Shown: piece by piece, positions 50,140 to 64,000 of the stretch
Layout: each line of letters starts with the position of its first letter
Position numbering within the stretch: the first letter of the stretch is position 1
Notes under the pieces: generated by a model
What the model was told of the DNA's origin: nothing
The model's database searches: none
What the model saw: only the letters and a program-made list of their open reading frames with translations
Source: Salinivirgaceae bacterium
GTDB taxonomy: Bacteria; Bacteroidota; Bacteroidia; Bacteroidales; SZUA-534
DNA length: 64,000 nt
Direction of reading: 5' to 3'
NCBI GenBank assembly: GCA_024405635.1
Contig: JAKSOL010000002.1
Span: 128,001-192,000, forward strand
Program-made: the position numbers and the translations under genes

Positions 50140-51276
50140 ATGAAACACTTAATTACTCTAGTGTTGGTGTGCTTTGTGGCTACTATGGCCATGGCTGCCG
50201 CAGAAACTTTTCAGAGTGGTGATCTTAGTTACACCATTACAAGCGGAACCGAGCCCTATACGGTAGAGGTTACAAAAGCCGATAGCTACAAATCCCTAAA
50301 AGATGTGGTTATTCCTGAGTCTGTAGAGAATAATGGCAAAACCTATTCGGTTACAAGCATTGGCCAGTATGCGTTTGCATATTGCAATAGCCTAACCTCA
50401 GTAACCATTCCAAATTCGGTTACAAGCATTGGCGACGAAGCATTCAAGTATGTAGGTAATATTGTGTACAATGGTACCAACGATTATGCCGCAAGAACAT
50501 TAAATGGTACAATTGATGGCGACTTTATTTGTGCCGATGCTGAAAAAACTCAGTTATCAGTGTACATTGGTAAAAGTGCTAACGTTGTTATTCCTGACAA
50601 TGTAACAACCATTGAAAATCTGGCATTTTTAAATAACGAAAGTGTTGAAACCTTGGTTGTCCCTGCTTCAGTAACCGTAATTAAGGACAACGCAATAATC
50701 CAATGCTTTAATACTATATATTGCGAGGTTAGCGCTAAGCCAGACACTTGGAAAAAGAATGGTTTTAATACATCAGCCAAAGTAATCTGGGGTGCGGTTA
50801 AAAACATTACTCTAACTGCTAATAATGATGCATTTGGAACTGTGGAAGGTGCTGGTAAAGTAGGCCTAAACACTAAAGCAACCCTAACCGCAACCGCAGC
50901 CGAGGGCTATCACTTTGCAAAATGGAGCAACGGCGCAACCGATGCAACCATAACAATAACCGTAGTTAGCGACACAACACTAACAGCAGAGTTTGCCGCA
51001 AACGAAAATCAAGGTGGCAACAACCAAGGAGATATCCAAGGTGATGTGAAACCTGCAGTTGCAGAAAATGCAGCCGATGCAATTTCAATCTACGCATACC
51101 AAAATATTATTGTAGTAGAAAATGCTGATGCAGAAATCTACGTATTTGATGTAATGGGCCGTTTGATTGCACGTGAAAACACTACAACCAACATTGCAGA
51201 AATACCAATGCCAAACGCAGGTATTTACATTGTAAAAGTTGGAGCTAAAGCACAACGCGTAAGCATTTCGCTTTAA
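50140..51276 (+). CDS. BspA-like leucine-rich-repeat surface protein with B-repeat-like domain and T9SS-type C-terminal domain
   Basis: Signal peptide; SVTSIGQYAFAYCNSLTSVTIPNSVTSIGDEAF LRR; ATAAEGYHFAKWSNG; C-terminal IYVFDVMGRLI...GIYIVKVG. Confidence 0.82.
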   Translation: MKHLITLVLVCFVATMAMAAAETFQSGDLSYTITSGTEPYTVEVTKADSYKSLKDVVIPESVENNGKTYSVTSIGQYAFAYCNSLTSVTIPNSVTSIGDEAFKYVGNIVYNGTNDYAARTLNGTIDGDFICADAEKTQLSVYIGKSANVVIPDNVTTIENLAFLNNESVETLVVPASVTVIKDNAIIQCFNTIYCEVSAKPDTWKKNGFNTSAKVIWGAVKNITLTANNDAFGTVEGAGKVGLNTKATLTATAAEGYHFAKWSNGATDATITITVVSDTTLTAEFAANENQGGNNQGDIQGDVKPAVAENAADAISIYAYQNIIVVENADAEIYVFDVMGRLIARENTTTNIAEIPMPNAGIYIVKVGAKAQRVSISL

Positions 51277-52711: not shown

Positions 52712-53281
52712 ATGAGAAAATTACTGCCAATATTATTGTTAGCCGCATTGTTTCAATCTTGCACCTCGTGTCCTGAGTATATTAAAGCCTACGAGTTGAA
52801 GCGTTGTGTAAATGTGGTTAGGGTAGTTGAATTGGGGGCGATTGAACCGATGGTTGCTGCCGATAGTATAAGGTTGCTGCAACGTGAATACGAAACTCAA
52901 TTGTGCAGTGCAATTGCCGAGCATAGGCATATTATTGATTCTCTTCAGGCAAAAATTCAAAAGACTGAGGCTGACATCAATAGCACATCGAGTGCTCAAA
53001 TGGTTGAATTACTAAACAAGGGTATAAAATCAATGCGTTGGAAATGTAATGTTGCACAGCAAGTTATTGATACATACCAAAACTCACCAGAGCAAACCAG
53101 ATTGGCAGATATCTTGAATCAAATTTTGCATTTTCAGACAGATACGGCCGCAGTTGTGGCGTACAAACAAAAGTGTGTGTTTGTTGGTCGCCAAGGTTTG
53201 TTGCCAAAAGAAACCTATGTGCGAAATTATGTTCTGTCGTTTGATAGGGGCGAAATTGTTGGTGAACTTATTCAGCATTAA
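52712..53281 (+). CDS. Hypothetical lipoprotein
   Basis: MRKLLPILLLAALFQSC lipobox; central coiled coil. Confidence 0.7.
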   Translation: MRKLLPILLLAALFQSCTSCPEYIKAYELKRCVNVVRVVELGAIEPMVAADSIRLLQREYETQLCSAIAEHRHIIDSLQAKIQKTEADINSTSSAQMVELLNKGIKSMRWKCNVAQQVIDTYQNSPEQTRLADILNQILHFQTDTAAVVAYKQKCVFVGRQGLLPKETYVRNYVLSFDRGEIVGELIQH

Positions 53282-54413
53282 CAAATTGTCCCGCAAATAG
53301 CACCTCGTTTGTTGCTTTGTTTACAATGTAATAAACAAACGGGTGGTCGAACAATACTGGAATGTCGCGCGATAGTGAACTCTTGGCAATCATTTCAATA
53401 GCAGTTGCGGCTGCAGCTTCGGTTCCTTTTTCATCTACGATTATTGTGGCATTGTGAAACACAGCACCTATTTTTAAATCGTTAGCTTGACTAATGCCCG
53501 AAAAGTTGGCAATGTTGCTGAACGCGTTTTTAAGACCTATATTTTTCAATGTTTCGCTAACATTTGTTGCTGTGTTGGTGTTGAATTTTGGCATCGATAA
53601 TATAATGGAAGTTGGGCGCAGAACTTTGGCAATGTCGTTGAGTATGCCATTTTTGAATCTCGAAAGCATTTCGGTAATAGTGCGGCCTTTGGGCATTATA
53701 ATATACATTGATAATTGATTGCCGTTGTATGGGAGTTCAACTGCTTGAATGTTGCCATCGGAGTAAAAGTTTAACATTTGCGTTTGTTGCATGAAAGATG
53801 CGCGTTGTGTTGTGTCGCCAAAAAAATCGCCATGCCAAGTGTTGCTGCTTTTGAATGGAGTAGCCCATTCGCCCGAAAAATCTATGGTGTTGGTTAGTAA
53901 TAAACGAGTGTTCTTGTCAAGGGCGTTACTTGGTATAAGTTCCTTTATCTTGCCGTTAGTTTGTTGTTTTGCCCATTGGTTTATTGCATTGCGTGCTTTG
54001 GCTCGTTTTTTGTCCGATTTAAAGTCGCAAAGTTTTGCTTCTGCTTTAAAATTGTTTGCCATTTCTTTTTTGAACGAGGCATTTATAGGATAGTCATTTT
54101 GAACCCAAATAGCATTTGTAACGTTAACTTTGCATTTGCCGCTAATGGTTGAAACGCAAGGCTTTGAGTCGGTTGCAAGCAGCCTGTTAAACTCAACTTT
54201 TGTGTCGCCCTTTGCTCCCGTTGCTGCCATTTGCAATGCAGTGCTTATTGAAGCTGGCGAAAAAACAAAGTTTTGTTTTTCCATTTCTTTGGTCAGCTCC
54301 AGTTGTATTTTGTAGGGGAGTAATCCGGTGCTAAGCGCTTTGTTGGCGTTTTTTTGAGCTATTAAATTTGTGCTTGCAATAATGGCAAGAGTCAGGATTA
54401 GTATTTTTTTCAT
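53268..54413 (-). CDS. Secreted serpin
   Basis: Signal peptide; NFVFSPASI, INQWAKQQTNGKI, VELPY, SMPKF, EKGTEAAAAT hinge, FDHPFVYYI; ATG 54413. Confidence 0.93.
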   Translation of the reverse strand: MKKILILTLAIIASTNLIAQKNANKALSTGLLPYKIQLELTKEMEKQNFVFSPASISTALQMAATGAKGDTKVEFNRLLATDSKPCVSTISGKCKVNVTNAIWVQNDYPINASFKKEMANNFKAEAKLCDFKSDKKRAKARNAINQWAKQQTNGKIKELIPSNALDKNTRLLLTNTIDFSGEWATPFKSSNTWHGDFFGDTTQRASFMQQTQMLNFYSDGNIQAVELPYNGNQLSMYIIMPKGRTITEMLSRFKNGILNDIAKVLRPTSIILSMPKFNTNTATNVSETLKNIGLKNAFSNIANFSGISQANDLKIGAVFHNATIIVDEKGTEAAAATAIEMIAKSSLSRDIPVLFDHPFVYYIVNKATNEVLFAGQFVNAE

Positions 54414-54417
54414 TTGG

Positions 54418-55830
54418 TTATCCGTTTTGTACTGTTTGTTCAACTTCGTCAATGGTTGATGGTACTTTTTTGCTACCCAAAACACGAGCTCCTGTTTCGG
54501 TAATAAGAAGGTCATCTTCAATTCTAACGCCACCAAAATCAATGTATTGCTCAACTTTGTTAAAATTAATGAACTCGGCATTTTTGCCAGACGCTTTCCA
54601 TTGGTTAATAAGGTCGGGAATGAAGTATATGCCAGGTTCATCGCTCACAACAAAACCGGGTTGAAGAGTGCGGCCCATGCGTAACGATGATGTGCCAAAT
54701 TGGTCAATTGGGCGTGTTATTTGGTCGTAACCAACATAAATCTGGCCTAAATTTTCCATGTCGTGAACATCGAGTCCAATCATGTGCCCAAGTCCGTGCG
54801 GTAAAAACATTGCATGAGCACCAGCGGCTACGGCTTCGTCAATATCGCCCTTCATTAATCCTAGGCTCTTAAGACCTTGTGCAATAATCTTGCAGCAAGC
54901 AAGGTGAACGCTCAAGTATGTTACTCCTGGTTTTGCAAGTTTAGCGGCAGCTTGGTTAGCATCAAGCACAATTTGGTAAATCTCTTTCTGTTTTTGTGTG
55001 AATTTGCCATTTACTGGAAATGTGCGAGTGTAGTCCGATGGGTATCCCATTGCAGTTTCGGCTCCAGCGTCAACCAACATAAGGCGCCCCGAGGTAATAG
55101 GATTGCCGTGATAGTGATTGTGTAGAGTTTGCCCATTTTGCGTTAATATGGTAGGAAACGAAAAGTAACCTCCGTATTTGAGTGGAATACTATCTACGAT
55201 GCTATGCAATTCGTACTCATTTTTTACACGAGTAACATTTTTCATTGCTGCTACATGCATTTCGTAACCAATAGCACAAGCAAATTCCATCTCTTCAATT
55301 TCTTCGGCCGATTTTACTGAGCGCAAATCTATTATGGCTTGTGTGAGTTTCATTGAAATACCATTAGCAACCTCGTCAGTTGAGCGGTTCAGCATTTTAG
55401 ATAGTTTTATTAAGGCATCAGCTCGATATTGTGGAGTGTACATTATGTCGCGGTCCATTCTCATAGCAGTGTGCACATACTCAATGGCTTCAGAGGTTGG
55501 CTTTACTCTAGTGATTCCAGCAAGTAGCGCACGTTCGCGTATGGTTTGTTGTTTTCCCATCCATACAATGTCATCAATACTATATTCATCGGCAAAAATT
55601 ATCTCTTCACCACTATCAAAATCAATGGCGGCCATAATGCCGGGTTGCCAAATGCCAAAAAAGTAAATAAATGTGCTGTCTTGACGAAAGCGATATGTAT
55701 TGTCGGTGTAGTTCATAGGAGAATCGTTGTTTCCCATAAAAATTGCTACACCAGTTTTTACTTTGTCACGTAAAAGTCGGCGGCGAGTAGCGTAAGTGCT
55801 TGCGCCAAACATGGTTCGTATTGTGTTCAT
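54418..55830 (-). CDS. pepP: Xaa-Pro aminopeptidase
   Basis: FRQDSTFIYF, DAGAE, SDYTRT, HGLGHMIGLDVHD, EPGIYF, GVRIEDD; start 55830 or 55812. Confidence 0.93.
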   Translation of the reverse strand: MNTIRTMFGASTYATRRRLLRDKVKTGVAIFMGNNDSPMNYTDNTYRFRQDSTFIYFFGIWQPGIMAAIDFDSGEEIIFADEYSIDDIVWMGKQQTIRERALLAGITRVKPTSEAIEYVHTAMRMDRDIMYTPQYRADALIKLSKMLNRSTDEVANGISMKLTQAIIDLRSVKSAEEIEEMEFACAIGYEMHVAAMKNVTRVKNEYELHSIVDSIPLKYGGYFSFPTILTQNGQTLHNHYHGNPITSGRLMLVDAGAETAMGYPSDYTRTFPVNGKFTQKQKEIYQIVLDANQAAAKLAKPGVTYLSVHLACCKIIAQGLKSLGLMKGDIDEAVAAGAHAMFLPHGLGHMIGLDVHDMENLGQIYVGYDQITRPIDQFGTSSLRMGRTLQPGFVVSDEPGIYFIPDLINQWKASGKNAEFINFNKVEQYIDFGGVRIEDDLLITETGARVLGSKKVPSTIDEVEQTVQNG

Positions 55831-56136
55831 TGTGTTTATGTTTTGAACCAAAGGTAGAAATAAGTTGTAAACTGATGAAATTGAAAAAAAGAGAGCGAAA
55901 ATAAGAGTAGAGAGGCGTGCTTTTGGTAACTTTTTTCTGATTGTATCGTAAAAGTATTTGTAGTGGTTATTAAAAAAAATCAGCAGTCTTTTAGTGGTTG
56001 ATATTCAAATGATAAGAATAGAAATTGCTCAACAATGCATTAAAGAATAAAAAATAGGAGGCTTGGTTTAATGAAAAATACTACTTTTACAATTATCGGT
56101 TGCAAGACAATCGGTGTGGAATTATAGTTAATAGGT

Positions 56137-56991
56137 ATGATTAGTAACGACGATATTGCAAAGGTTCTGGCTGCTTTTAAAACGGCATCAACCTACGATT
56201 TTAGCGATTATTGCGACAGGTCGTTTGCGCGCCGAGTTGACAAGATTCTTACCGATAATAAAATTTCTGCCGATTTGTTCGTGAAACAACTAATGAGTGA
56301 TCGCGACTTCCTTGAAAAATCGGTGCGCGACATTACGGTAAACACAACCGAGCTTTTTCGCGATCCGCAAATGTGGCTCAACTTGCGCTATCAAGTGTTG
56401 CCTCGTTTTAAGGATAAACCTACAATTAAAATTTGGCATGCAGGCTGCTCATCGGGACAAGAGATTTATTCAATGATGATTTTGCTTAACGAACTTGGCA
56501 TGTTCGATAAAGCTCAAATCTTTGCTACCGATATAAATACCGCTGTTATTGAGGCCGCACAAACTGGTACTTACAAGTACATGTTCAACTTGAATTATTT
56601 GGACAACTTTGACAAGGTGATGCGCGAAAATCCGTACAACTTTGAGCAAAAGTACGACGTCCCTTATGAAAAATACTTTGATATTGATAAGCGTAAGGAC
56701 GTTATTCAAATGAATGATTTCTTGTGTAAGAAACCAGTGTTCCGTAAGCATGACTTGGTGAGCGGATGCAACCCATTCTATCACCAATTTGATTTAATAT
56801 TGTGCCGCAACGTAATCATTTACTTTAATCCCAAATTGCAAAATAAGGTTATCAATATGTTTGCAAATAACCTATCGGTAAATGGCTTTTTGATTTTGGG
56901 AGCTTCGGAAAGTATTTTGGGCTCGGCCAATAGTAGCTTTGAGCGAATGGTAGGTTTCTATCGTAAAAAACAAACAATTTCAATGTTTTAG
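56137..56991 (+). CDS. cheR: CheR-type protein-glutamate O-methyltransferase (catalytic motifs intact)
   Basis: TVNTTELFRDP, IWHAGCSSGQEIYS, FATDIN, HDL, FDLILCRNVIIYF, LGASES. Confidence 0.92.
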   Translation: MISNDDIAKVLAAFKTASTYDFSDYCDRSFARRVDKILTDNKISADLFVKQLMSDRDFLEKSVRDITVNTTELFRDPQMWLNLRYQVLPRFKDKPTIKIWHAGCSSGQEIYSMMILLNELGMFDKAQIFATDINTAVIEAAQTGTYKYMFNLNYLDNFDKVMRENPYNFEQKYDVPYEKYFDIDKRKDVIQMNDFLCKKPVFRKHDLVSGCNPFYHQFDLILCRNVIIYFNPKLQNKVINMFANNLSVNGFLILGASESILGSANSSFERMVGFYRKKQTISMF

Positions 56992-56994
56992 CTT

Positions 56995-57822
56995 ATGATA
57001 GAAACTTTGGGTATAGTGGATATTAGAAAAATGAACGGATTTGTGTCCGAGGCATTTGGCATTAATTTGGCCGACTATGCGTCAACCATATTAAAACGCC
57101 GCTATGTGCACATGCTCAATACATATAATTGCGTGTCGGTAGATAATTTTGAGGATAGAATAAAAAAAGGAATAATTACCGCCGATGATGTGATGTATGA
57201 AGTGTCGCTAGAGACTACAGAATTGTTCCGCGATCCTTCGGCTTGGCGCGAAATGCGTGACAAATACTTGCCAGAAGTGTGCAAGTCGGGCAAGTGTAAT
57301 ATATTAATGCCCGGCGAGTCTTCAGGTGACGAACTTTACTCAATGATGATAGTGTTGTCTGAAGCAAATTTGTTAGATAAAGTTCAAGTAGATGCGTATT
57401 GCCCATCAAACCGAAACTTGAAACAAATAAAAGATGGTGGTTTGTATGATTCCAAAAAATTAGAGTTGGGTGATGCAAACTATACTAGATATTCGGGGCC
57501 TAAAACATTGTCCAACTATTATACATTGGTGGACAATAGAGCAAAAATGCAATCATCGTTGCTTAATGGGGTAAATCTTTCGGTGCGCGATGTACAGAAA
57601 AATGCCGACACAAAACGATATAAAATGATAGTGTATCGAAATGTGTTGCTGCAATATTCGGTTCCATTGTATGAGCGAGTGGTGAAAACCTTAGTTGATA
57701 AACTTGACATAGGCGGTTACTTGATTATTGGCGATATGGAGACCCTTGAGTATTGCGATTCAAACCGAAAATTGGTTTTGGTTGATAGCGCTGAACAGGT
57801 GTATCGTAAAAAGATGGATTAG
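56995..57822 (+). CDS. Second, degenerate CheR-like protein
   Basis: TTELFRDP, PGESSGDELYS, YRNVLLQY, LIIGDMET; SAM-binding ATD replaced by AYC. Confidence 0.82.
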   Translation: MIETLGIVDIRKMNGFVSEAFGINLADYASTILKRRYVHMLNTYNCVSVDNFEDRIKKGIITADDVMYEVSLETTELFRDPSAWREMRDKYLPEVCKSGKCNILMPGESSGDELYSMMIVLSEANLLDKVQVDAYCPSNRNLKQIKDGGLYDSKKLELGDANYTRYSGPKTLSNYYTLVDNRAKMQSSLLNGVNLSVRDVQKNADTKRYKMIVYRNVLLQYSVPLYERVVKTLVDKLDIGGYLIIGDMETLEYCDSNRKLVLVDSAEQVYRKKMD

Positions 57823-57825
57823 AGT

Positions 57826-58392
57826 ATGGAAAGCGAATATAAAGCCATAATGATTGGAGGTTCTGCCGGAAGTTTTCAGGTGGTGTGCAAAATAATAGCC
57901 GCATTGCCTGCCGACTATCCATTGCCAATTATTATGTGTTTGCATAGATTGAAACATGTGCGTTCGGGCTTTGTTGAGGCTCTTTCAATTAAATCAAAGT
58001 TGCCTATAATTGAGCCCCACGACAAAGAACCTCTACGCAATGGTCGCATATATTTGGCTCCCGCAAACTATCACATGTATATAGAGTTGGGTAACCGTTT
58101 TTCACTATCTACTGAGGATGTGATTAATCACTCGCGCCCATCAATCGATTTGTCATTCTTTTCCGCCTCGTACAATTATAAGCGTAAGTTGGTGGGAATA
58201 ATTCTTAGTGGAGCCAACAAAGATGGAGCTCTAGGATTGAAAAGTGTAGCAGACGGTGGAGGCTTGACTATAGTCCAAGATCCTAAAGAATGTCAAGTCC
58301 CAACAATGACTACAGCTTCAATGAATGCAACAAAAGTTGACCATATATTTACAACCAAACAAATTATTGACTTTTTGCTTAAACTAACATAA
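57826..58392 (+). CDS. cheB: Stand-alone CheB-type methylesterase (no receiver domain)
   Basis: IGGSAGS (Ser), LHR (His), RPSID, LSGANKDG (Asp), IVQDP. Confidence 0.92.
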   Translation: MESEYKAIMIGGSAGSFQVVCKIIAALPADYPLPIIMCLHRLKHVRSGFVEALSIKSKLPIIEPHDKEPLRNGRIYLAPANYHMYIELGNRFSLSTEDVINHSRPSIDLSFFSASYNYKRKLVGIILSGANKDGALGLKSVADGGGLTIVQDPKECQVPTMTTASMNATKVDHIFTTKQIIDFLLKLT

Positions 58393-58402
58393 CCCTAATT
58401 GT

Positions 58403-59155
58403 ATGGATATTTTGAAACACAAAAGCAAAACGTACACTTGCGGCATCTTGATGATGCTACTTTGTGTAGTTTCAATTATAGTACTGCTTTGCGGTAGCCA
58501 AAATATGGGCAATATAGCATCGCTCACATTGTTGGCATTGCTAGTTCTAATGGCGTTTATGGCGTTCAGTATGATGCTTATGGGCATCAAAATGGTAGAC
58601 ACAGTTATCGAAACCGAAGAAGATCGAATGATTGAGACCGAAGACCAATACGAGCAAAAGGTTGATGATATTATAAGAGATATAGATCAACGAGATTTCG
58701 ATTTGGAAAAGGTAGCATCTCTTGTAACTAAAAACGAAGGTTGGAAAATGTTTGCAGAATCTCTTTTATCTTCGTTGTCAAAGCAAGTTGATATGGCGAT
58801 AGGAATTGTATATAAGGCCGAAAAAGATGATAATGGAGATGTGTTTAATCCAGTGGCAACATATGCATATTATAGCGATCAAGCTCCATCCAGTTTTAGA
58901 GTGGGAGAGGGTATATCGGGACAAGTGGTGTTAGATAAAAAATCAATGATGCTAAACGAATTGTCAAACAAAAACATGACAATAGTGTCGGGGTTAGGCG
59001 AGTCGCAAGTCAATAATTTGGCAATTGTTCCAATTTTAAAGGACGATAATGTGGTCGGTTTAATAGAAATTGCTACATTTAAACCATTGGAAAAATGTGT
59101 AGCAAGCAAGATAGATGATTTGTCTAAAGTAATTGGTAATATTGCACCTTTATAA
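58403..59155 (+). CDS. Two-TM membrane protein with C-terminal GAF domain
   Basis: Two hydrophobic helices; ATYAY...FRVGEGISGQV...IVSGLG...IVPI...VVGLIEIA. Confidence 0.85.
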   Translation: MDILKHKSKTYTCGILMMLLCVVSIIVLLCGSQNMGNIASLTLLALLVLMAFMAFSMMLMGIKMVDTVIETEEDRMIETEDQYEQKVDDIIRDIDQRDFDLEKVASLVTKNEGWKMFAESLLSSLSKQVDMAIGIVYKAEKDDNGDVFNPVATYAYYSDQAPSSFRVGEGISGQVVLDKKSMMLNELSNKNMTIVSGLGESQVNNLAIVPILKDDNVVGLIEIATFKPLEKCVASKIDDLSKVIGNIAPL

Positions 59156-59167
59156 ACTGAAAACCTA

Positions 59168-61795
59168 ATGGGAATTTTAGTTGATACCATAAAGAGTGTC
59201 CTAGTATATAGGGCAAACAACAAGGAGAACTACGTGCCAAGCATGGTATGTATAGGCATACTTGTAGTTGTCGTGTCGTGGATTGTTGCGTTTATAAGCA
59301 ACGATATCGAAGTGTCTATTGTAGGATTGACAGAAATACACGGCCAAAATGCAATTTTGTTTGTTGTTGATTTGCTCCCATTTATAATGGGAGGTATTGG
59401 TTATGTGTTTACAAAATCAACACGCCAAGCAATACATGAGTTGACTGCTGAAATAAACGAGAAGAATCGTGTTATTACACAAAATGCTCAATTTGCAAAA
59501 AAAATAGGTGAAGGCGATTTTAATGCTCAAGATGGAGAGGTTGATGATAACGATGTGTTAGGCCACTCGTTGAAAATTATGAAGAACAACCTTGCCGAAA
59601 CTAATGAAAAAGAGAAAGAACATAACTGGATTGCAAAAGGAAAGGATTCAATTGCTGATATCTTGCGCAAACAGTCAGAACTTGATAAACTATCGTATGA
59701 GACTTTGGTTGAGGTAATTAAATACATTGATGTTATTCAAGGTGCGTTTTATATCTACAACGAAGACGAAAAAGTGTTGGAAAATACAGCGACTTATGCA
59801 TATAACCGCCGCAAATATCAAAACGCAAGTTTTGCTATAGGAGAGGGCTTGGTCGGTCAATGTGCATTTGAGATGGATGTGATTTTCCGTCGCGAGATTC
59901 CTGATGATTTTATCACAATTACTAGTGGCATATTAGGTGAGCAAAAACCAACGTCGTTATTGCTGGTGCCTTTAGTGTCTGACGAAAAATTGCAAGGAGT
60001 TCTTGAATTTGCGTCATTAAAAGACGATATCACTGATTTGAAAATCAGATTTGTGAAAGAGTTGAGTGATGTTATTGCCCGTACTATTTCAAACTTAAAA
60101 GTATCTGCAAATACATCACGACTATACGATGAGTCCCAAAAAATGACAAAGGAATTGAAGGAGAGCGAGATTGCGCTTCTTCAAGAAAAAGAGCAATTGC
60201 AAGAAACTCGTGAGGAGGTTGAGAAGAAAAATGCTGACCTTAATGCACAAAACGAGAAGATTGAAAATGCGCAAAAGCGTTTGAATTCATTGCTTGAAAA
60301 TGCTTCGGAGATTATTTCAATCTATGACGAAAATAGAGTGCTTACATACATAAGTCCTTCAGTTGTAAATATATATGGCTACACTGGAGATGAAATGATT
60401 GCAGGTAAGGACCTTGATAGGTTGACAGCAAAAGGTATTAAAGAGTTTGCAGAGGCATTTACAAAACTACTTGAAGATCCTGAAACTCCGCAAACAATTC
60501 AATATACTTATATGAGGAAAGATGGCCAAAAGATCTTTATAGAATCAATTGGTCGAAATTTGTTGAACGACCCAGCAATTAAGGGTATCATTATCAACTC
60601 GCAAGATATAACTGAGCGTAAACGTGCAGAGAAAGAGGAGCGCATGAAGAGTAAAATGCAGTCGTTGTCCGAAAACTCTCTTGATATGATTACTCGTGTT
60701 GGTACTACTGGTATATTTTTCTATGCAAACCCAGTGGTTAAAAAATATACAGACATTGAGCCCTCAGCGTTGATTAACAAGAATTTGAATGAAGTTGATT
60801 TCCATCCGCAAATCAAAGTGTCGCTTAACGAAGCAATACAAATTGTGAAAGAAACTCATGAGAAACACGATACAGAGGTTACTTTCCCAACTAATTTTGG
60901 TGATCGTATAATGCAAGTAAATGCAATACCAGAGTTTAGCGACGATAACAAAGAATTGGAAACTATTTTGCTTGTTGCTCACGATATTACTGAGCAAAAG
61001 ATGGCGGAAATGGAAATTCAAGAGAAGAATAAATCAATTACCGAGAGTATCAACTATGCTAAACGAATTCAGAACTCAATTCTGCCAAATACCAAGTTTA
61101 TACAAGAGTATTTGCCGAACTCGTTCATATTGTATCGCCCTCGTGAGGTTGTAAGTGGAGACTTCCCTTGGTTCTTTAAAAAAGGTGATGACTTGTTTAT
61201 CGCAGCAGTTGATTGTACAGGTCATGGTGTGCCGGGAGCTTTGTTGTCGTTTATTGGTTATTTTACATTGAATAATGTTGTTGACCACTATGACAATATT
61301 AACGCAGGTCAAATCCTAGATAAGGTTCACGAAGGGGTTCGTACAACATTGAAGCAAGATCGTATTGATTCTGAGGCTCGAGATGGTATGGATATGGCAC
61401 TTTGTAAAATAAACCTTAAGAAAAATATACTAGAATTTGCAGGTGCTCATCGTCCTTTGTATTTGACGAGAGGAAAAGAATTGATTCAATACAAAGGAAG
61501 CCATAAGGCAATTGGAGGTATACCATTGGGTAAGAAACAGGAGGAAGATTTTGAGAATCATTTGATAAATCTTGAAGCTGGTGACCGCGTATTTTTCTTC
61601 TCTGATGGATTCCCTGACCAAGTAGGAGGAGATAGTGGAAGAAAATATCAAACAAATAGAATGCGAGAAGTGCTTTTAAATAACACAGAAGCAACTATAT
61701 TTGAGCACGAAAAAATATTGAATGATGATTTGGAAGCTTATAGAGGAAACTATAAGCAAGTTGATGATATATTATTAATAGGTATAGAGTTTTAA
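59168..61795 (+). CDS. TM-GAF-coiled coil-PAS-PAS-PP2C (SpoIIE/RsbU/SiaA-type) phosphatase
   Basis: 2 TM; ATYAY..FAIGEGLVGQC GAF; PAS domains ending DITERK and DITEQK; YAKRIQ, VSGDF, DCTGHGVPGA, DGMD, FSDG, DDI. Confidence 0.92.
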   Translation: MGILVDTIKSVLVYRANNKENYVPSMVCIGILVVVVSWIVAFISNDIEVSIVGLTEIHGQNAILFVVDLLPFIMGGIGYVFTKSTRQAIHELTAEINEKNRVITQNAQFAKKIGEGDFNAQDGEVDDNDVLGHSLKIMKNNLAETNEKEKEHNWIAKGKDSIADILRKQSELDKLSYETLVEVIKYIDVIQGAFYIYNEDEKVLENTATYAYNRRKYQNASFAIGEGLVGQCAFEMDVIFRREIPDDFITITSGILGEQKPTSLLLVPLVSDEKLQGVLEFASLKDDITDLKIRFVKELSDVIARTISNLKVSANTSRLYDESQKMTKELKESEIALLQEKEQLQETREEVEKKNADLNAQNEKIENAQKRLNSLLENASEIISIYDENRVLTYISPSVVNIYGYTGDEMIAGKDLDRLTAKGIKEFAEAFTKLLEDPETPQTIQYTYMRKDGQKIFIESIGRNLLNDPAIKGIIINSQDITERKRAEKEERMKSKMQSLSENSLDMITRVGTTGIFFYANPVVKKYTDIEPSALINKNLNEVDFHPQIKVSLNEAIQIVKETHEKHDTEVTFPTNFGDRIMQVNAIPEFSDDNKELETILLVAHDITEQKMAEMEIQEKNKSITESINYAKRIQNSILPNTKFIQEYLPNSFILYRPREVVSGDFPWFFKKGDDLFIAAVDCTGHGVPGALLSFIGYFTLNNVVDHYDNINAGQILDKVHEGVRTTLKQDRIDSEARDGMDMALCKINLKKNILEFAGAHRPLYLTRGKELIQYKGSHKAIGGIPLGKKQEEDFENHLINLEAGDRVFFFSDGFPDQVGGDSGRKYQTNRMREVLLNNTEATIFEHEKILNDDLEAYRGNYKQVDDILLIGIEF

Positions 61796-61814
61796 AACAT
61801 AAAATATAATTGCT

Positions 61815-62390
61815 ATGGAAAATTCAGATTTCCTAGATTTTGTTTACAATTTCAGCGACTCAATGGGCAAACGAAATGCCGAGTTGGTTTATAAAGGTGA
61901 GATATCGCACCAAGTAACCAAGGCGTTTACTTCGTTGACCGAAACAAGTATGTTGATGGAGCAAGAACCTAATTCGGTGCAGAAAAAGGTTTTTCACGTT
62001 ATTGTAGAGTTCTTGCAAAATATTAGCAAACACGCTGATAGCTTGGAAACTGGAGAAGACCGCCGTGAGGGTAGCGGAGTGTTCTTGCTTTGCAAAGACG
62101 AGGAAAATTATACCATAACAACAGGTAATGTGATGATGATTCACAAGAAAGACGCAATAGCATCAATTCTTGAGAAAATCAACTCATTGGACCGAGAAGG
62201 GTTGAAAGCCTTGTATAAGCAGCAGATTAAGGACGGCCGTTTGAGCGAAAAAGGTGGCGCAGGCTTAGGCTTTATTGATATAGCAAAGAAAACAGGTAAT
62301 AAACTTAATTATTCGTTTGTCCAATTGAATGACGAGTATACATTTTTTATTATATCATCAACAATTTCGAGAACTCAATTATCAGATTAA
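61815..62390 (+). CDS. SiaB-family protein kinase (GHKL, anti-sigma-like)
   Basis: VIVEFLQNISKHA N-box, TGN, LKALYK, GGAGLGFIDIAKKTG G-box. Confidence 0.88.
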   Translation: MENSDFLDFVYNFSDSMGKRNAELVYKGEISHQVTKAFTSLTETSMLMEQEPNSVQKKVFHVIVEFLQNISKHADSLETGEDRREGSGVFLLCKDEENYTITTGNVMMIHKKDAIASILEKINSLDREGLKALYKQQIKDGRLSEKGGAGLGFIDIAKKTGNKLNYSFVQLNDEYTFFIISSTISRTQLSD

Positions 62391-62412
62391 CACTTAATAA
62401 ATTATATAAATT

Positions 62413-62796
62413 ATGGAAGTAATTAAAATAGTTGGAACCGACGATACTCCAAGTGTAACACTAGACGTTGCAAACGAAATTTTTGAAATTTCAGGACGTT
62501 CACTTCCTGAGGACGTTGCAATGTTTTATAAACCTATTTTGGATTGGTTGGACCGTTATGCTGATGAGGCAACAGGTAGCACTGTGTTTAACTTCAAATT
62601 GGTTTACTTCAATACTGCATCTTCAAAAATGATTCTTGATATCCTTTTGAAATTAGAGGAAATACATGAGTCGGGAAAAGAAGTGCTCATTAAATGGTAT
62701 TATCCTGATGACGACGAAGACATGGAAGAGGCAGGTGAAGAATACTCTGACATTGTTGATGTGCCATTTGAGCAAATTAGCTATTCATTGGATTAA
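62413..62796 (+). CDS. SiaC-family (DUF1987) switch protein
   Basis: TDDTPSV, ISGRSLPED..FYKP, YFNTASSK (phospho-Thr motif), IKWYY..DDEDM.EAGEE. Confidence 0.9.
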   Translation: MEVIKIVGTDDTPSVTLDVANEIFEISGRSLPEDVAMFYKPILDWLDRYADEATGSTVFNFKLVYFNTASSKMILDILLKLEEIHESGKEVLIKWYYPDDDEDMEEAGEEYSDIVDVPFEQISYSLD

Positions 62797-62842
62797 TTTT
62801 TTTTCTATAGATATCTATAGTTCTATAAAGAAACACTTTTAG

Positions 62843-64000
62843 ATGAGTGAAGAGATCTTAAAGGCCTTAATGCAGCTCTTTGCGATTATTGCAAAGCAGG
62901 ATGGTGGCGTAAAGGAAAGCGAGATAGACTTTGTAGAAAATTTCTTGACTTCTCAATTGAGTTCAGACTTGGTTGAGGAGTTTTTGGCTTTATTCTACAA
63001 ACACGCCCAAATTAGTGGCCGTGAGGATTTGCAAAAGGCAAAAGAAAACGAAGACGTTAAGTTAACTTCGGTAACCGACTCGGTTCGTATTCTTGGTATA
63101 TGCAAAAAGATTAACAAGACACTGACCCAACAACAAAAGGTTGTTACGTTGGTGCGTTTGTTTGAGTTGGTTGCAGCTGACCGCCAATTTACAGAGCAGC
63201 GTATGGCCATTATCAATACAGTGGCCGAAGTATTTAATGTTTCGTCAGAGGAATTTTCAAATACTGAAACGTTTGTTGTTAAAGAATCGGTTGATGGTCT
63301 TGATGTCGCAAGCATGTTGATTATCAACGATAAACCTCTTGAATTAACAGCTGCTAAGCATATCCAAATTGAAGATCTTGACCAAGAATTGGTAATACTC
63401 CAAATAAAGAGTGTTGACCTTTACTTCTTGAAGTATATGGGTAGCCATGAGCTTTTGCTTAATGGTCTGCCAATCAAAGGAAATAAAATTTACTTGTTTG
63501 CTAATGGTAGTGCAATTCGCTTCCCTAAAGGTAAACCAGTATATTATAGCGACGTTGTTTCAAAATACTTGGCCGATGTAACTTCTGCCAAAATCACTTA
63601 CAACGTTAATGATCTTGAGTATAAATTCCCAAATGGCGCAATAGGTTTGCGTAACATCAACTTGTCGGAGGAGCAAGGCAAGTTAGTTGGAATTATGGGC
63701 GCTAGTGGTGCAGGAAAAACAACATTGTTAAATGTACTTACTGGCAACGAACGCCCATCGCAAGGAAATGTTCTTATAAACGGCATTGACCTTCATAATG
63801 AGAAGGAAAAAATGGAAGGTGTTATTGGATATATTCCACAAGACGACCTTTTGATAGAGGAACTGACAGTGTATCAGAACCTTTATTTCAATGCTAAATT
63901 GTGCTTCAAAAATATGAGCGATGAGGAAATTCAGGAGCGAGTTGATAAAACATTGCTAAACTTGGGTTTGCTTGATCGTAAGGATTTGAAAGTAGGTTCG
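62843..64000 (+). CDS. TerB-like + FHA-like + ABCG-type ATP-binding protein (partial, runs off window)
   Basis: Not in ORF track; open for 386 codons from ATG 62843: MSEEILKALMQLFAIIAKQDGGVKESEIDFV...LFELVAADRQFTEQRMAIINTVAEVF (TerB-like), LLLNGLPI...FANGSAIRF, Walker A GASGAGKTT, Q-loop GYIPQDD, LTVYQNL. Confidence 0.88.
   Translation, partial: MSEEILKALMQLFAIIAKQDGGVKESEIDFVENFLTSQLSSDLVEEFLALFYKHAQISGREDLQKAKENEDVKLTSVTDSVRILGICKKINKTLTQQQKVVTLVRLFELVAADRQFTEQRMAIINTVAEVFNVSSEEFSNTETFVVKESVDGLDVASMLIINDKPLELTAAKHIQIEDLDQELVILQIKSVDLYFLKYMGSHELLLNGLPIKGNKIYLFANGSAIRFPKGKPVYYSDVVSKYLADVTSAKITYNVNDLEYKFPNGAIGLRNINLSEEQGKLVGIMGASGAGKTTLLNVLTGNERPSQGNVLINGIDLHNEKEKMEGVIGYIPQDDLLIEELTVYQNLYFNAKLCFKNMSDEEIQERVDKTLLNLGLLDRKDLKVGS

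Follow-up and report, generated by a model that had tools for sequence, protein, structure and literature searches.

A CheR–CheB methylation module joined to a SiaABC-type switch and a TerB-domain ABC transporter gene in Bacteroidia

In chemotaxis, reversible methylation of glutamates is the textbook memory device, nearly always discussed together with methyl-accepting chemotaxis proteins (MCPs) and CheA. Rv1747 of Mycobacterium tuberculosis is an FHA-bearing ABC2/ABCG-type exporter whose N-terminal regulatory domains are tied to Ser/Thr phosphorylation. In Pseudomonas, the Thr68 face of SiaC binds the stalk of the diguanylate cyclase SiaD, and phosphorylation of Thr68 blocks this binding (PMC8457831, in excerpt). 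The nearest experimental parallel to the locus analysed here comes from Bacillus cereus. There, the S-helix of RsbK, a CHASE3-HAMP-GAF-S-helix-histidine kinase-receiver protein that signals via the PP2C RsbY to the RsbV/RsbW partner switch, is methylated by RsbM; RsbM has no paired esterase, and RsbK-like kinases are stated to occur in 10 phyla (PMC4574943). Che1 of Shewanella is a non-motility chemosensory pathway that has been suggested to feed RpoS regulation (PMC9855816, in excerpt). Here we describe an operon of a Salinivirgaceae bacterium that joins CheR- and CheB-type genes to a SiaABC-type switch and to the gene of a TerB-domain ATP-binding cassette (ABC) transporter. It begins at position 56137 of a 64-kb window, the whole stretch of DNA that was analysed (positions 128001-192000 of contig JAKSOL010000002.1, assembly GCA_024405635.1), within a host genome of 2.66 Mb in 36 contigs that is 99.78% complete.

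We propose, with a probability of roughly one half, that methylation of an S-helix in the membrane sensor acts through its PP2C domain on Thr68 of SiaC and from there on the TerB-ABC transporter. No published description of this set of genes (hereafter, the cassette) was found, subscription journals being outside the scope of the search, and the term 'DUF6272' was absent from the same literature.

The operon and its gene map

From position 56137 to the end of the window, the map of open reading frames (ORFs) holds eight ORFs, all co-directional on the + strand and separated by gaps of 3, 3, 10, 12, 19, 22 and 46 bp in that order, as the original prediction had described. The domain identities that it had read from the letters (CheR, receiver-less CheB, TM-GAF, GAF-PAS-PAS-PP2C, SiaB kinase and SiaC with YFNTAS; TM, transmembrane) stood up in Pfam, NCBIfam and PDB alignments, Pfam domain calls being accepted at E<=0.01. 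Features beyond the window are given in window-equivalent positions; aa, amino acids.

55852..56136, +: upstream intergenic region of 285 bp, common to a divergent M24 peptidase gene; presumed promoter region
56137..56991, +: CheR1, protein-glutamate methyltransferase by sequence, 284 aa; Pfam CheR 136.6 bits; motifs intact
56995..57822, +: CheR2, divergent CheR paralogue, 275 aa; Pfam CheR 56.7 bits; degenerate site motif for S-adenosylmethionine (SAM)
57826..58392, +: CheB catalytic domain alone, receiver-less, 188 aa; Pfam CheB_methylest 157.2 bits over residues 8-183
58403..59155, +: small TM-TM-GAF protein, 250 aa; Pfam GAF_2 41 bits
59168..61795, +: sensor phosphatase (SiaA analogue), 875 aa; TM-TM, HAMP-like, GAF, S-helix, PAS, PAS and PP2C (Pfam)
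60191..60220, +: S-helix motif EQLQETREEV, residues 342-351 of the sensor phosphatase, a divergent copy of QN[AM]EE[ML]xATQEE; candidate methyl-accepting site from alignment with orthologues, paralogues and RsbK-type kinases
61815..62390, +: SiaB-family Ser/Thr kinase (DUF6272), 191 aa; Pfam 137.5 bits
62413..62796, +: SiaC-family phosphoprotein, 127 aa; Pfam SiaC 144.5 bits; Thr68 codon ACT at 62614-62616
62843..64000, +: 5' part of the ABC half-transporter gene, full product 1035 aa, running to window-equivalent 65950; TerB 38.3 and ABC_tran 79.3 bits
Domains of the ABC half-transporter: TerB-like helical domain, residues 1-146; FHA fold, residues 158-243; nucleotide-binding domain from residue 269
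66001-66924 (window-equivalent), +: lipoprotein u307, 307 aa, lipobox LVGC, 50 bp after the ABC gene
66937-67371 (window-equivalent), +: secreted protein u144, 144 aa, 12 bp after u307
67394-67424 (window-equivalent): terminator-like hairpin after u144, 14-bp stem and T-run

The hairpin after u144 is the sole terminator-like site outside any ORF within 11 kb; a second hairpin (L003 6948-6983) falls inside the ABC ORF. A sigma-70 scan identified no promoter: its 60 sites were not above the 48.4 ± 7.5 of shuffles, in a scan whose model does not cover Bacteroidota promoters. Near-identical DNA is present in animal-gut metagenomes, and RNA-library contigs of at least 99% identity, from 3 metatranscriptome libraries of 3 studies, are scattered across the operon genes. 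Co-transcription, the absence of which the original prediction had named as a refutation, is supported at the PP2C|SiaB junction (bridged by contig 61717-62302) and the SiaB|SiaC junction (contig 62333-62804). The SiaC|ABC junction is bridged by none of the listed contigs, a result that is uninformative either way, with several bins uncovered. These contigs are strandless and may contain DNA, which lessens what they can contribute to the proposed pathway. In a contig of DNA run X2, the T-run directly after the SiaC stop codon, in the SiaC-ABC spacer (62796-62843), has one additional T, a length polymorphism.

Conservation of the cassette across Bacteroidota

The CheB protein matched 207 of the 401 Bacteroidota genomes of a phylum sample, a count that includes ordinary REC-CheB proteins (REC, receiver) and large CheB-CheR-kinase fusions; receiver-less CheB frames of 189-277 aa were present in 31 further genomes of the sample. 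Among 20 receiver-less CheB contexts examined from it, four hold the whole cassette, CheR(-CheR')-CheB-TM-GAF-sensor-PP2C-SiaB-SiaC-ABC-u307-u144: those of G311, G111 and G359, which belong to one family, and that of G243, in the same order, with protein identities of 36-61%. In the other 16, CheR-CheB lies beside a large protein that resembles the window sensor in its GAF region. The seven such proteins that were scanned are all GAF-HisKA-HATPase-REC hybrid kinases, four of them with CHASE3 or HAMP. A class sample of 71 evenly drawn Bacteroidia genomes adds three families, one of them with the full cassette (G407). Altogether, 8 genomes from 6 families carry the signalling module, 6 of them with the ABC gene immediately after it, so that the conserved neighbourhood on which the original prediction had staked its case is indeed observed.

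A SiaB–SiaC switch and its link to the exporter

The DUF6272 protein belongs to the SiaB family, scoring 157 bits against NCBIfam SiaB_fam_kinase (cut-off 85) and 83.6 bits against the SiaB equivalog, below the cut-off of 225; its residues 15-182 align to chain A of PDB 6KKO (E 6e-15). SiaC aligns to 6KKO_C/6KKP (E 5e-17) with YFNTAS opposite YLNTSS, so Thr68 is conserved, and Y65, F66, N67 and T68 are invariant in 21/21 cassette- or ABC-linked SiaCs. The phosphatase domain of the sensor is matched by Pfam SpoIIE/PP2C with 62.3 bits and by the NCBIfam SiaA equivalog with 192 bits (cut-off 700), the latter over the C-terminal 270 aa only. Within the operon there is no sigma factor, GGDEF domain or other usual output. 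GGDEF is unmatched both in the 8 genes downstream and across the whole genome, in keeping with the earlier expectation that no such gene would follow beyond 64000.

The last gene of the window encodes a half-transporter of 1035 aa with, in order, TerB, a linker domain, ABC_tran, ABC2_membrane and 250 uncharacterised C-terminal residues. For residues 1-268, AlphaFold2 gives a model with a predicted local distance difference test score (pLDDT) of 90.3 from a 45-sequence alignment, comprising a helical domain (residues 3-146) and a beta domain. Foldseek matches the helical domain to the TerB-like protein PG1108 (2H5N) and residues 158-243 to the FHA domains of CEP170, MEK1, EssC and Rad53 (probability 0.98-1.0, E-values 0.02-0.1). 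At the level of sequence, residues 140-268 have no Pfam match at E<=0.01, which leaves FHA supported by fold only. Thus, in the predicted TerB-FHA-ABC architecture, TerB and ABC are borne out by Pfam and FHA solely by its fold. Y198, G200, L206, N207, G222, Y234, Y235 and D237 are near-invariant in the alignment of the FHA fold, and no conserved G-R or S-x-x-H, the canonical phosphothreonine-binding residues, is evident in that sequence alignment. The modelled beta domain is therefore described here as an FHA fold and not as a demonstrated phosphothreonine reader.

Several lines of evidence connect this transporter family with SiaC. The TerB-ABC N-terminus matched in 41 of the 71 class-sample genomes, with 1-3 copies each, and 40 such loci were scanned, over a span reaching 9 kb upstream and 7.5 kb downstream of the ABC start, with hidden Markov models (HMMs) built from the host genome and four orthologous cassettes. 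A flanking SiaC gene is present at 16 of the 40 loci, across many families, compared with about 2.7 expected from the SiaC density of the host genome, although some of the loci share a genus and are not all independent. A SiaB-type kinase accompanies SiaC at 15 of these 16, u307 adjoins the ABC gene at 35 of the 40 and CheR/CheB occur at just one. SiaC and the ABC gene are co-directional at some loci and convergent at others, and the PP2Cs of the SiaC-linked loci belong to unrelated sensors, with Reg_prop/Y_Y_Y propellers, PAS or a receiver.

Complex modelling of ABC residues 1-268 with SiaC yielded interface scores (ipSAE) of 0.81, 0.82 and 0.81, as against 0.00 for the best of 3 controls; the runs agree in 100% of contacts, and the partner has a pLDDT of at least 92. 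Among solved complexes, 116 of 157 attain this mark, as do 2 of 215 mismatched pairs; these counts hold only roughly here because the model was built on our own alignments. The modelled SiaC interface comprises residues 63, 65-72, 75 and 103-114 and thus includes Thr68; that on the ABC protein comprises residues 74-85, 88 and 119-130 of the TerB domain, with S80 and V81 near-invariant. We know of no solved TerB–SiaC complex. Since the modelled SiaC face is the known SiaD-binding face, its use may stem from the memory that the model has of solved SiaC complexes. Taken with the linkage at 16 of the 40 loci, the model and its controls favour the earlier suggestion that the Thr switch controls an exporter.

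Five observations pull the other way. SiaC is missing from the scanned flanks of 24 of the 40 TerB-ABC loci; two of the three TerB-ABC paralogues of the host genome (C18 and C1) have no adjoining SiaC; and the modules of G422 and G441, CheR-CheB-...-GAF-PP2C-SiaB-SiaC, have no adjoining ABC gene. The modelled ABC interface is equally conserved in 19 SiaC-linked and 26 unlinked ABC proteins (the alignment omits L107, which has SiaC nearby), so this comparison does not discriminate. Last, the host genome has 11 SiaC genes, most of which adjoin unrelated genes: mutL, pheT, rhomboid (twice), crcB, ridA, a DUF5698/DUF2179 membrane protein and an alpha/beta hydrolase. With most paralogues beside housekeeping genes, adjacency is a weak guide to the target of SiaC. 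All this would fit an alternative in which the partner switch is real and the exporter a mere frequent neighbour: SiaC would act on some other target, such as an unlinked protein, or SiaB would sequester a factor as RsbW does, and ABC-u307-u144 would be an independent transport unit on a common transcript. That the ABC and u307 unit recurs without SiaC, for example on contig C1, points in the same direction. We regard this alternative as unlikely, yet as one to be taken seriously. The excess of SiaC near TerB-ABC genes, in both orientations and with unrelated phosphatase sensors, argues for function over inherited gene order; the complex model, with Thr68 in its interface, separates cleanly from its controls; and the operon offers no other usual output.

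The remaining SiaC paralogues of the host genome are on contigs C32, C2, C17, C5 (two), C8, C23, C25, C4 and C36, ten in all. Three of the 11 SiaC genes adjoin a DUF6272 kinase (contigs C12, C32 and C25) and one a TPR-PP2C (C8), in a genome with 12 PP2C-domain proteins and 4 DUF6272 proteins, which looks like a many-substrate phospho-switch network. A SiaC tree of 35 rows, in which many branches are long, left 22 of 32 inner branches unresolved and so leaves the monophyly of ABC-linked SiaCs undecided. At C32:41345-42273, a SiaB-SiaC pair is followed by DUF7935; in this poorly resolved tree its SiaC groups with SiaCs of other families that are convergent to TerB-ABC genes, and the pair may act in trans for one of the two ABC paralogues that lack a linked SiaC.

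Two full-length paralogues of the window transporter, 43% identical to it, are present in the host genome. On C18, the paralogue is transcribed divergently from the genes of two dCache-HAMP-GAF(-PAS) proteins (910 and 784 aa; C18:25966-34243), neither with an output domain, a second and different link of GAF transducers to the TerB-ABC family; the 784-aa transducer carries the S-helix motif, and the 910-aa copy has diverged. On C1, the paralogue is preceded by a paralogue of u307. Neither u307 nor u144 has a Pfam or NCBIfam match, and the atlas matches of u307 and of the 250 C-terminal residues of the ABC protein are uncharacterised Bacteroidota clusters only. In G363, a 365-aa protein encoded between a normal SiaC gene and the ABC gene (L083 7874-8971) has a C-terminal SiaC domain (119 bits). 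A likeness of its 240 N-terminal residues to TerB-FHA, which would make it a SiaC/TerB-FHA gene fusion, is weak (HMM E 1e-6, BLASTP E 0.015) and was not counted as evidence.

A methylation module with an intact CheR and CheB

CheR1 aligns to Bacillus subtilis CheR (PDB 5FTW) with an E-value of 1e-25, its GCSSGQE and ATDIN motifs falling on their counterparts. The Ser, His and Asp of CheB align with the corresponding residues of 1CHD, given the numbering that we take the triad to have. With motifs and Ser/His/Asp residues kept, CheR1 and CheB are probably active enzymes. CheR2 shares 26% identity with CheR1, and its alignment to 5FTW places AYCPS where ATDID is expected and PGESSGDE where AACSTGEE is expected. 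The Asp of ATDID binds SAM, and in view of these changes CheR2 is probably not a normal enzyme, consistent with the degenerate CheR of the original prediction; judging by its sequence, a role as an adaptor is more probable than an enzymatic one. G243 likewise has a second CheR; a single one was found in G311, G111, G359, G407, G422 and G441. In G243 (L056, C1:2360000-2379999), the genes ahead of the cassette encode CheD, a CheB with a receiver and a TM-HAMP-GAF-PAS-PAS protein of 625 aa that bears the canonical motif. CheD deamidates chemoreceptor glutamines, and its position beside the cassette is consistent with the methyl-accepting reading. In G434 (L120-L122), an isolated CheR-CheB-CheR cluster has no adjoining sensor gene.

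The host genome has no CheR or CheB outside this locus. Genome-wide searches with MCPsignal (PF00015), CheW (PF01584) and H-kinase_dim (PF02895) gave 0 matches, CheY not being searched for; the same models matched in 8 of 14 reference genomes that served as a control. The lack of MCP, CheA and CheW noted earlier for the window therefore extends to the genome. Together with the unmatched GGDEF and the degenerate SAM site of CheR2, this could be taken to mean that CheR, CheR' and CheB are left over, inactive, from a lost chemotaxis system and lie by chance upstream of a signalling operon. Such a remnant fits the data poorly and is highly improbable: CheR1 keeps its motifs and CheB its triad, the gene order is kept across 6 families at 36-61% protein identity, the genes are only 3-12 bp apart, and RNA-library contigs fall on them.

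A candidate methyl-accepting S-helix

Both GAF proteins of the operon have two hydrophobic stretches at the N-terminus. HAMP is called by Pfam in the G311 orthologue and in the paralogues of the sensor phosphatase, not in the window copy itself. The host genome encodes eight paralogous (dCache/TM)-HAMP-GAF proteins, PP2C being present only on the window copy; the seven others have 0-3 PAS domains and no catalytic domain recognised by Pfam. All eight carry, directly after GAF, a coiled-coil segment with the motif QNMEE[ML]xATQEE, which in the cassette orthologues reads QNAEEMQATQEEL. The chemoreceptor methylation consensus is E-E-x-x-A-S/T, and the E-E-x-x-A-T of this motif fits it. The window sensor may be methylated at its copy of the motif.

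The motif was searched in the sampled genomes as a back-translated pattern with at most 3 mismatches. In the phylum sample it matched 6 of 401 genomes, five of which, with 1-6 scattered matches each, are the very five that bear the cassette. In the class sample there were matches in 6 of 71 genomes, which represent 6 families and are all among the 28 with any CheB and the 16 with receiver-less CheB; the naive odds of this overlap are 0.003 and 6e-5, respectively, although related genomes are not independent and the significance is thus overstated. The reversed pattern, used as a control, gave 0 matches in both samples. Across the 471 genomes of the combined samples, receiver-less CheB is present in 9 of 10 motif carriers, and in G422 CheR-CheB directly follows the gene of a motif protein. 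CheB-CheR-fused kinases have three repeats of this type (EELQAANEE, EELETSKEE and EELISTNQE). In G434, two unlinked histidine kinases bear the motif (QNLEELxATQEQ), one of them in two copies.

Other results are less favourable to this site. The window sensor phosphatase, which is central to the proposed pathway, holds the most divergent copy of the motif, QEKEQLQETREEV (EQLQETREEV). Within the host genome a regular expression for the motif matched 5 of 2228 ORFs, all HAMP-GAF family members, a specificity that is partly circular because the pattern was designed on this family. The sixth motif genome of the phylum sample, G039, has one 3-mismatch match and no CheB match. The weak copy in the window PP2C sensor could mean that CheR1 and CheB modify another substrate, such as the small TM-GAF protein, SiaC, the TerB domain or an unrelated protein, as reported for Salmonella CheR and PhoP. 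A non-MCP CheR substrate of a different kind has been published (PMC8546571, in excerpt), and within the cassette CheB is invariably followed by the TM-GAF gene.

Orthologues of the small TM-GAF protein occupy the same position in G311, G111, G359, G243, G407 and G422. In these 6 orthologues the GAF core is conserved and the linker is not; they share neither a Glu pair in the linker nor a C-terminal docking peptide, and the protein was set aside as a candidate methylation substrate. This speaks against another substrate for CheR1 and CheB, as do the co-occurrence of the motif with CheB, the methylation of RsbK on the equivalent helix and the presence of a sensor-like GAF protein as the invariant neighbour of receiver-less CheB/CheR in 20 contexts, whatever the output. 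We consider a different substrate quite unlikely. The view that methylation acts on a phosphatase complex in place of an MCP is thus favoured by the sequence evidence, but the idea has a precedent in RsbK/RsbM, whereas the original prediction was aware of no characterised case of this wiring.

Proposed mechanism

The pathway that we propose would combine three known modules and run independently of CheA, CheW and MCPs. In it, membrane HAMP-GAF-PAS transducers would sense a cue, one member carrying the PP2C phosphatase; the small TM-GAF protein and the seven unlinked paralogues without catalytic output probably act with this member, so that signals would be pooled. By analogy with RsbK/RsbM, CheR1 would methylate Glu/Gln pairs of the S-helix motif directly after GAF, and the receiver-less CheB would demethylate or deamidate them. 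This methylation may tune phosphatase activity, as methylation tunes chemoreceptors. Homology to the Pseudomonas proteins, which have been solved and assayed, suggests that the SiaB-type kinase adds, and the PP2C domain removes, the phosphate on Thr68 of SiaC. Gene linkage and the complex model suggest that unphosphorylated SiaC docks its Thr68 face on the TerB domain and so gates export by the ABCG-type half-transporter, which would work with the lipoprotein u307 and the secreted protein u144.

Together, these results suggest that sensory adaptation by methylation here controls export, not swimming. Within the reach of computation, every refuting condition named in the original prediction came out in its favour. 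A broader view is that the HAMP-GAF-S-helix-PAS proteins are analogues of chemoreceptors: a methyl-accepting family of eight, served by one CheR/CheB pair, would pool its signals on the PP2C member, with Ser/Thr phosphorylation in place of CheA and an exporter in place of the motor. We advance this tentatively, as possible though doubtful.

The bearers of the cassette are non-flagellated gut and environmental Bacteroidia. If the proposal is correct, a methylation memory device adapts a phosphatase-based pathway, a SiaC-type phospho-switch directly gates an ABC exporter, and a function can be assigned to three families so far without annotation: the DUF6272-type kinases of Bacteroidota, the TerB/FHA-fold ABCG-type transporters and their accompanying lipoprotein. 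Because individual residues can be named (the S-helix motif, Thr68 of SiaC, and S80 and V81 of the ABC protein), the role of receiver-less CheR/CheB in non-chemotactic bacteria would also become directly testable.

Neighbouring genes

Upstream of the operon, a BspA-type leucine-rich-repeat protein with a type IX secretion system (T9SS) sorting tail is encoded at window 50140-51276 (+), and a bacterial serpin (Pfam Serpin 300 bits) at 53268-54641 (-). The longest serpin ORF overlaps the start of the M24 aminopeptidase ORF by 224 nt, so the true serpin start is probably further in. Past the terminator, a 193-aa protein (window-equivalent 67500-68081) has weak HD_4 and RelA-SpoT-like matches (Pfam E 0.004, NCBIfam E 5e-6) and probably lies outside the operon.

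Comparison with known systems

The switch part of the cassette resembles SiaABCD of Pseudomonas aeruginosa in its membrane PP2C, its SiaB-family kinase and its DUF1987 SiaC with an N-T-S/A motif and Thr68 (PMC8457831 and PMC7647112, in excerpt). In the complex model SiaC would bind its target by the same face (residues 65-75 and 103-110), where a phosphate on Thr68 would clash. Unlike SiaABCD, this genome has no GGDEF/SiaD match, the candidate target is the TerB domain of the ABC protein, the phosphatase has HAMP-like, GAF and two PAS domains, and CheR, CheR', CheB and TM-GAF are added. With the defining cyclase not found, the cassette is not a member of the SiaABCD class.

RsbK/RsbM offers the nearest likeness to the methylation part: a CheR-type gene beside a HAMP-GAF-S-helix sensor, with a PP2C and a partner switch downstream, known here from sequence alone. 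The scanned CheR-CheB-linked kinases of relatives are also RsbK-like, being GAF-HisKA-HATPase-REC proteins, some with CHASE3 or HAMP. RsbM is an orphan with no esterase, whereas the dedicated CheB found here would allow the mark to be reversed. The hybrid histidine kinase RsbK acts on RsbY, a REC-PP2C, whereas here PP2C is fused to a sensor with no HisKA, HATPase or REC. The switch proteins are of the SiaB/SiaC type instead of RsbV/RsbW, and the proposed output is an exporter and not a sigma factor such as sigma-B. Having no histidine kinase relay or sigma factor, the cassette is not a member of the RsbK/RsbM class.

With canonical MCP-CheW-CheA pathways the cassette shares CheR/CheB-type enzymes and the arrangement of dispersed transducer paralogues with a common Glu-rich motif and a single CheR/CheB locus. 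It differs in having no MCP, CheW or CheA dimerisation match, a CheB without the receiver that couples it to CheA, and an output via Ser/Thr phosphorylation. As MCP, CheW and CheA are unmatched, it is not a Che pathway member.

The CheB-CheR-fused hybrid histidine kinases of Bacteroidota (L058 and L060, about 1390 aa) carry EEL-x-[AS]-[AT]-x-[EQ]E repeats on a helix after the CheR domain, similar to the S-helix motif. Unlike the cassette, they join the enzymes and their presumed substrate in one polypeptide and have a histidine kinase output; no experimental work on them was found in the literature searched. In contrast to Rv1747, FHA is recognised here by fold only, and the modelled SiaC contact lies on TerB and not on FHA. 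Set against all of these, the cassette works like a combination of SiaABCD, Che and RsbK/RsbM parts.

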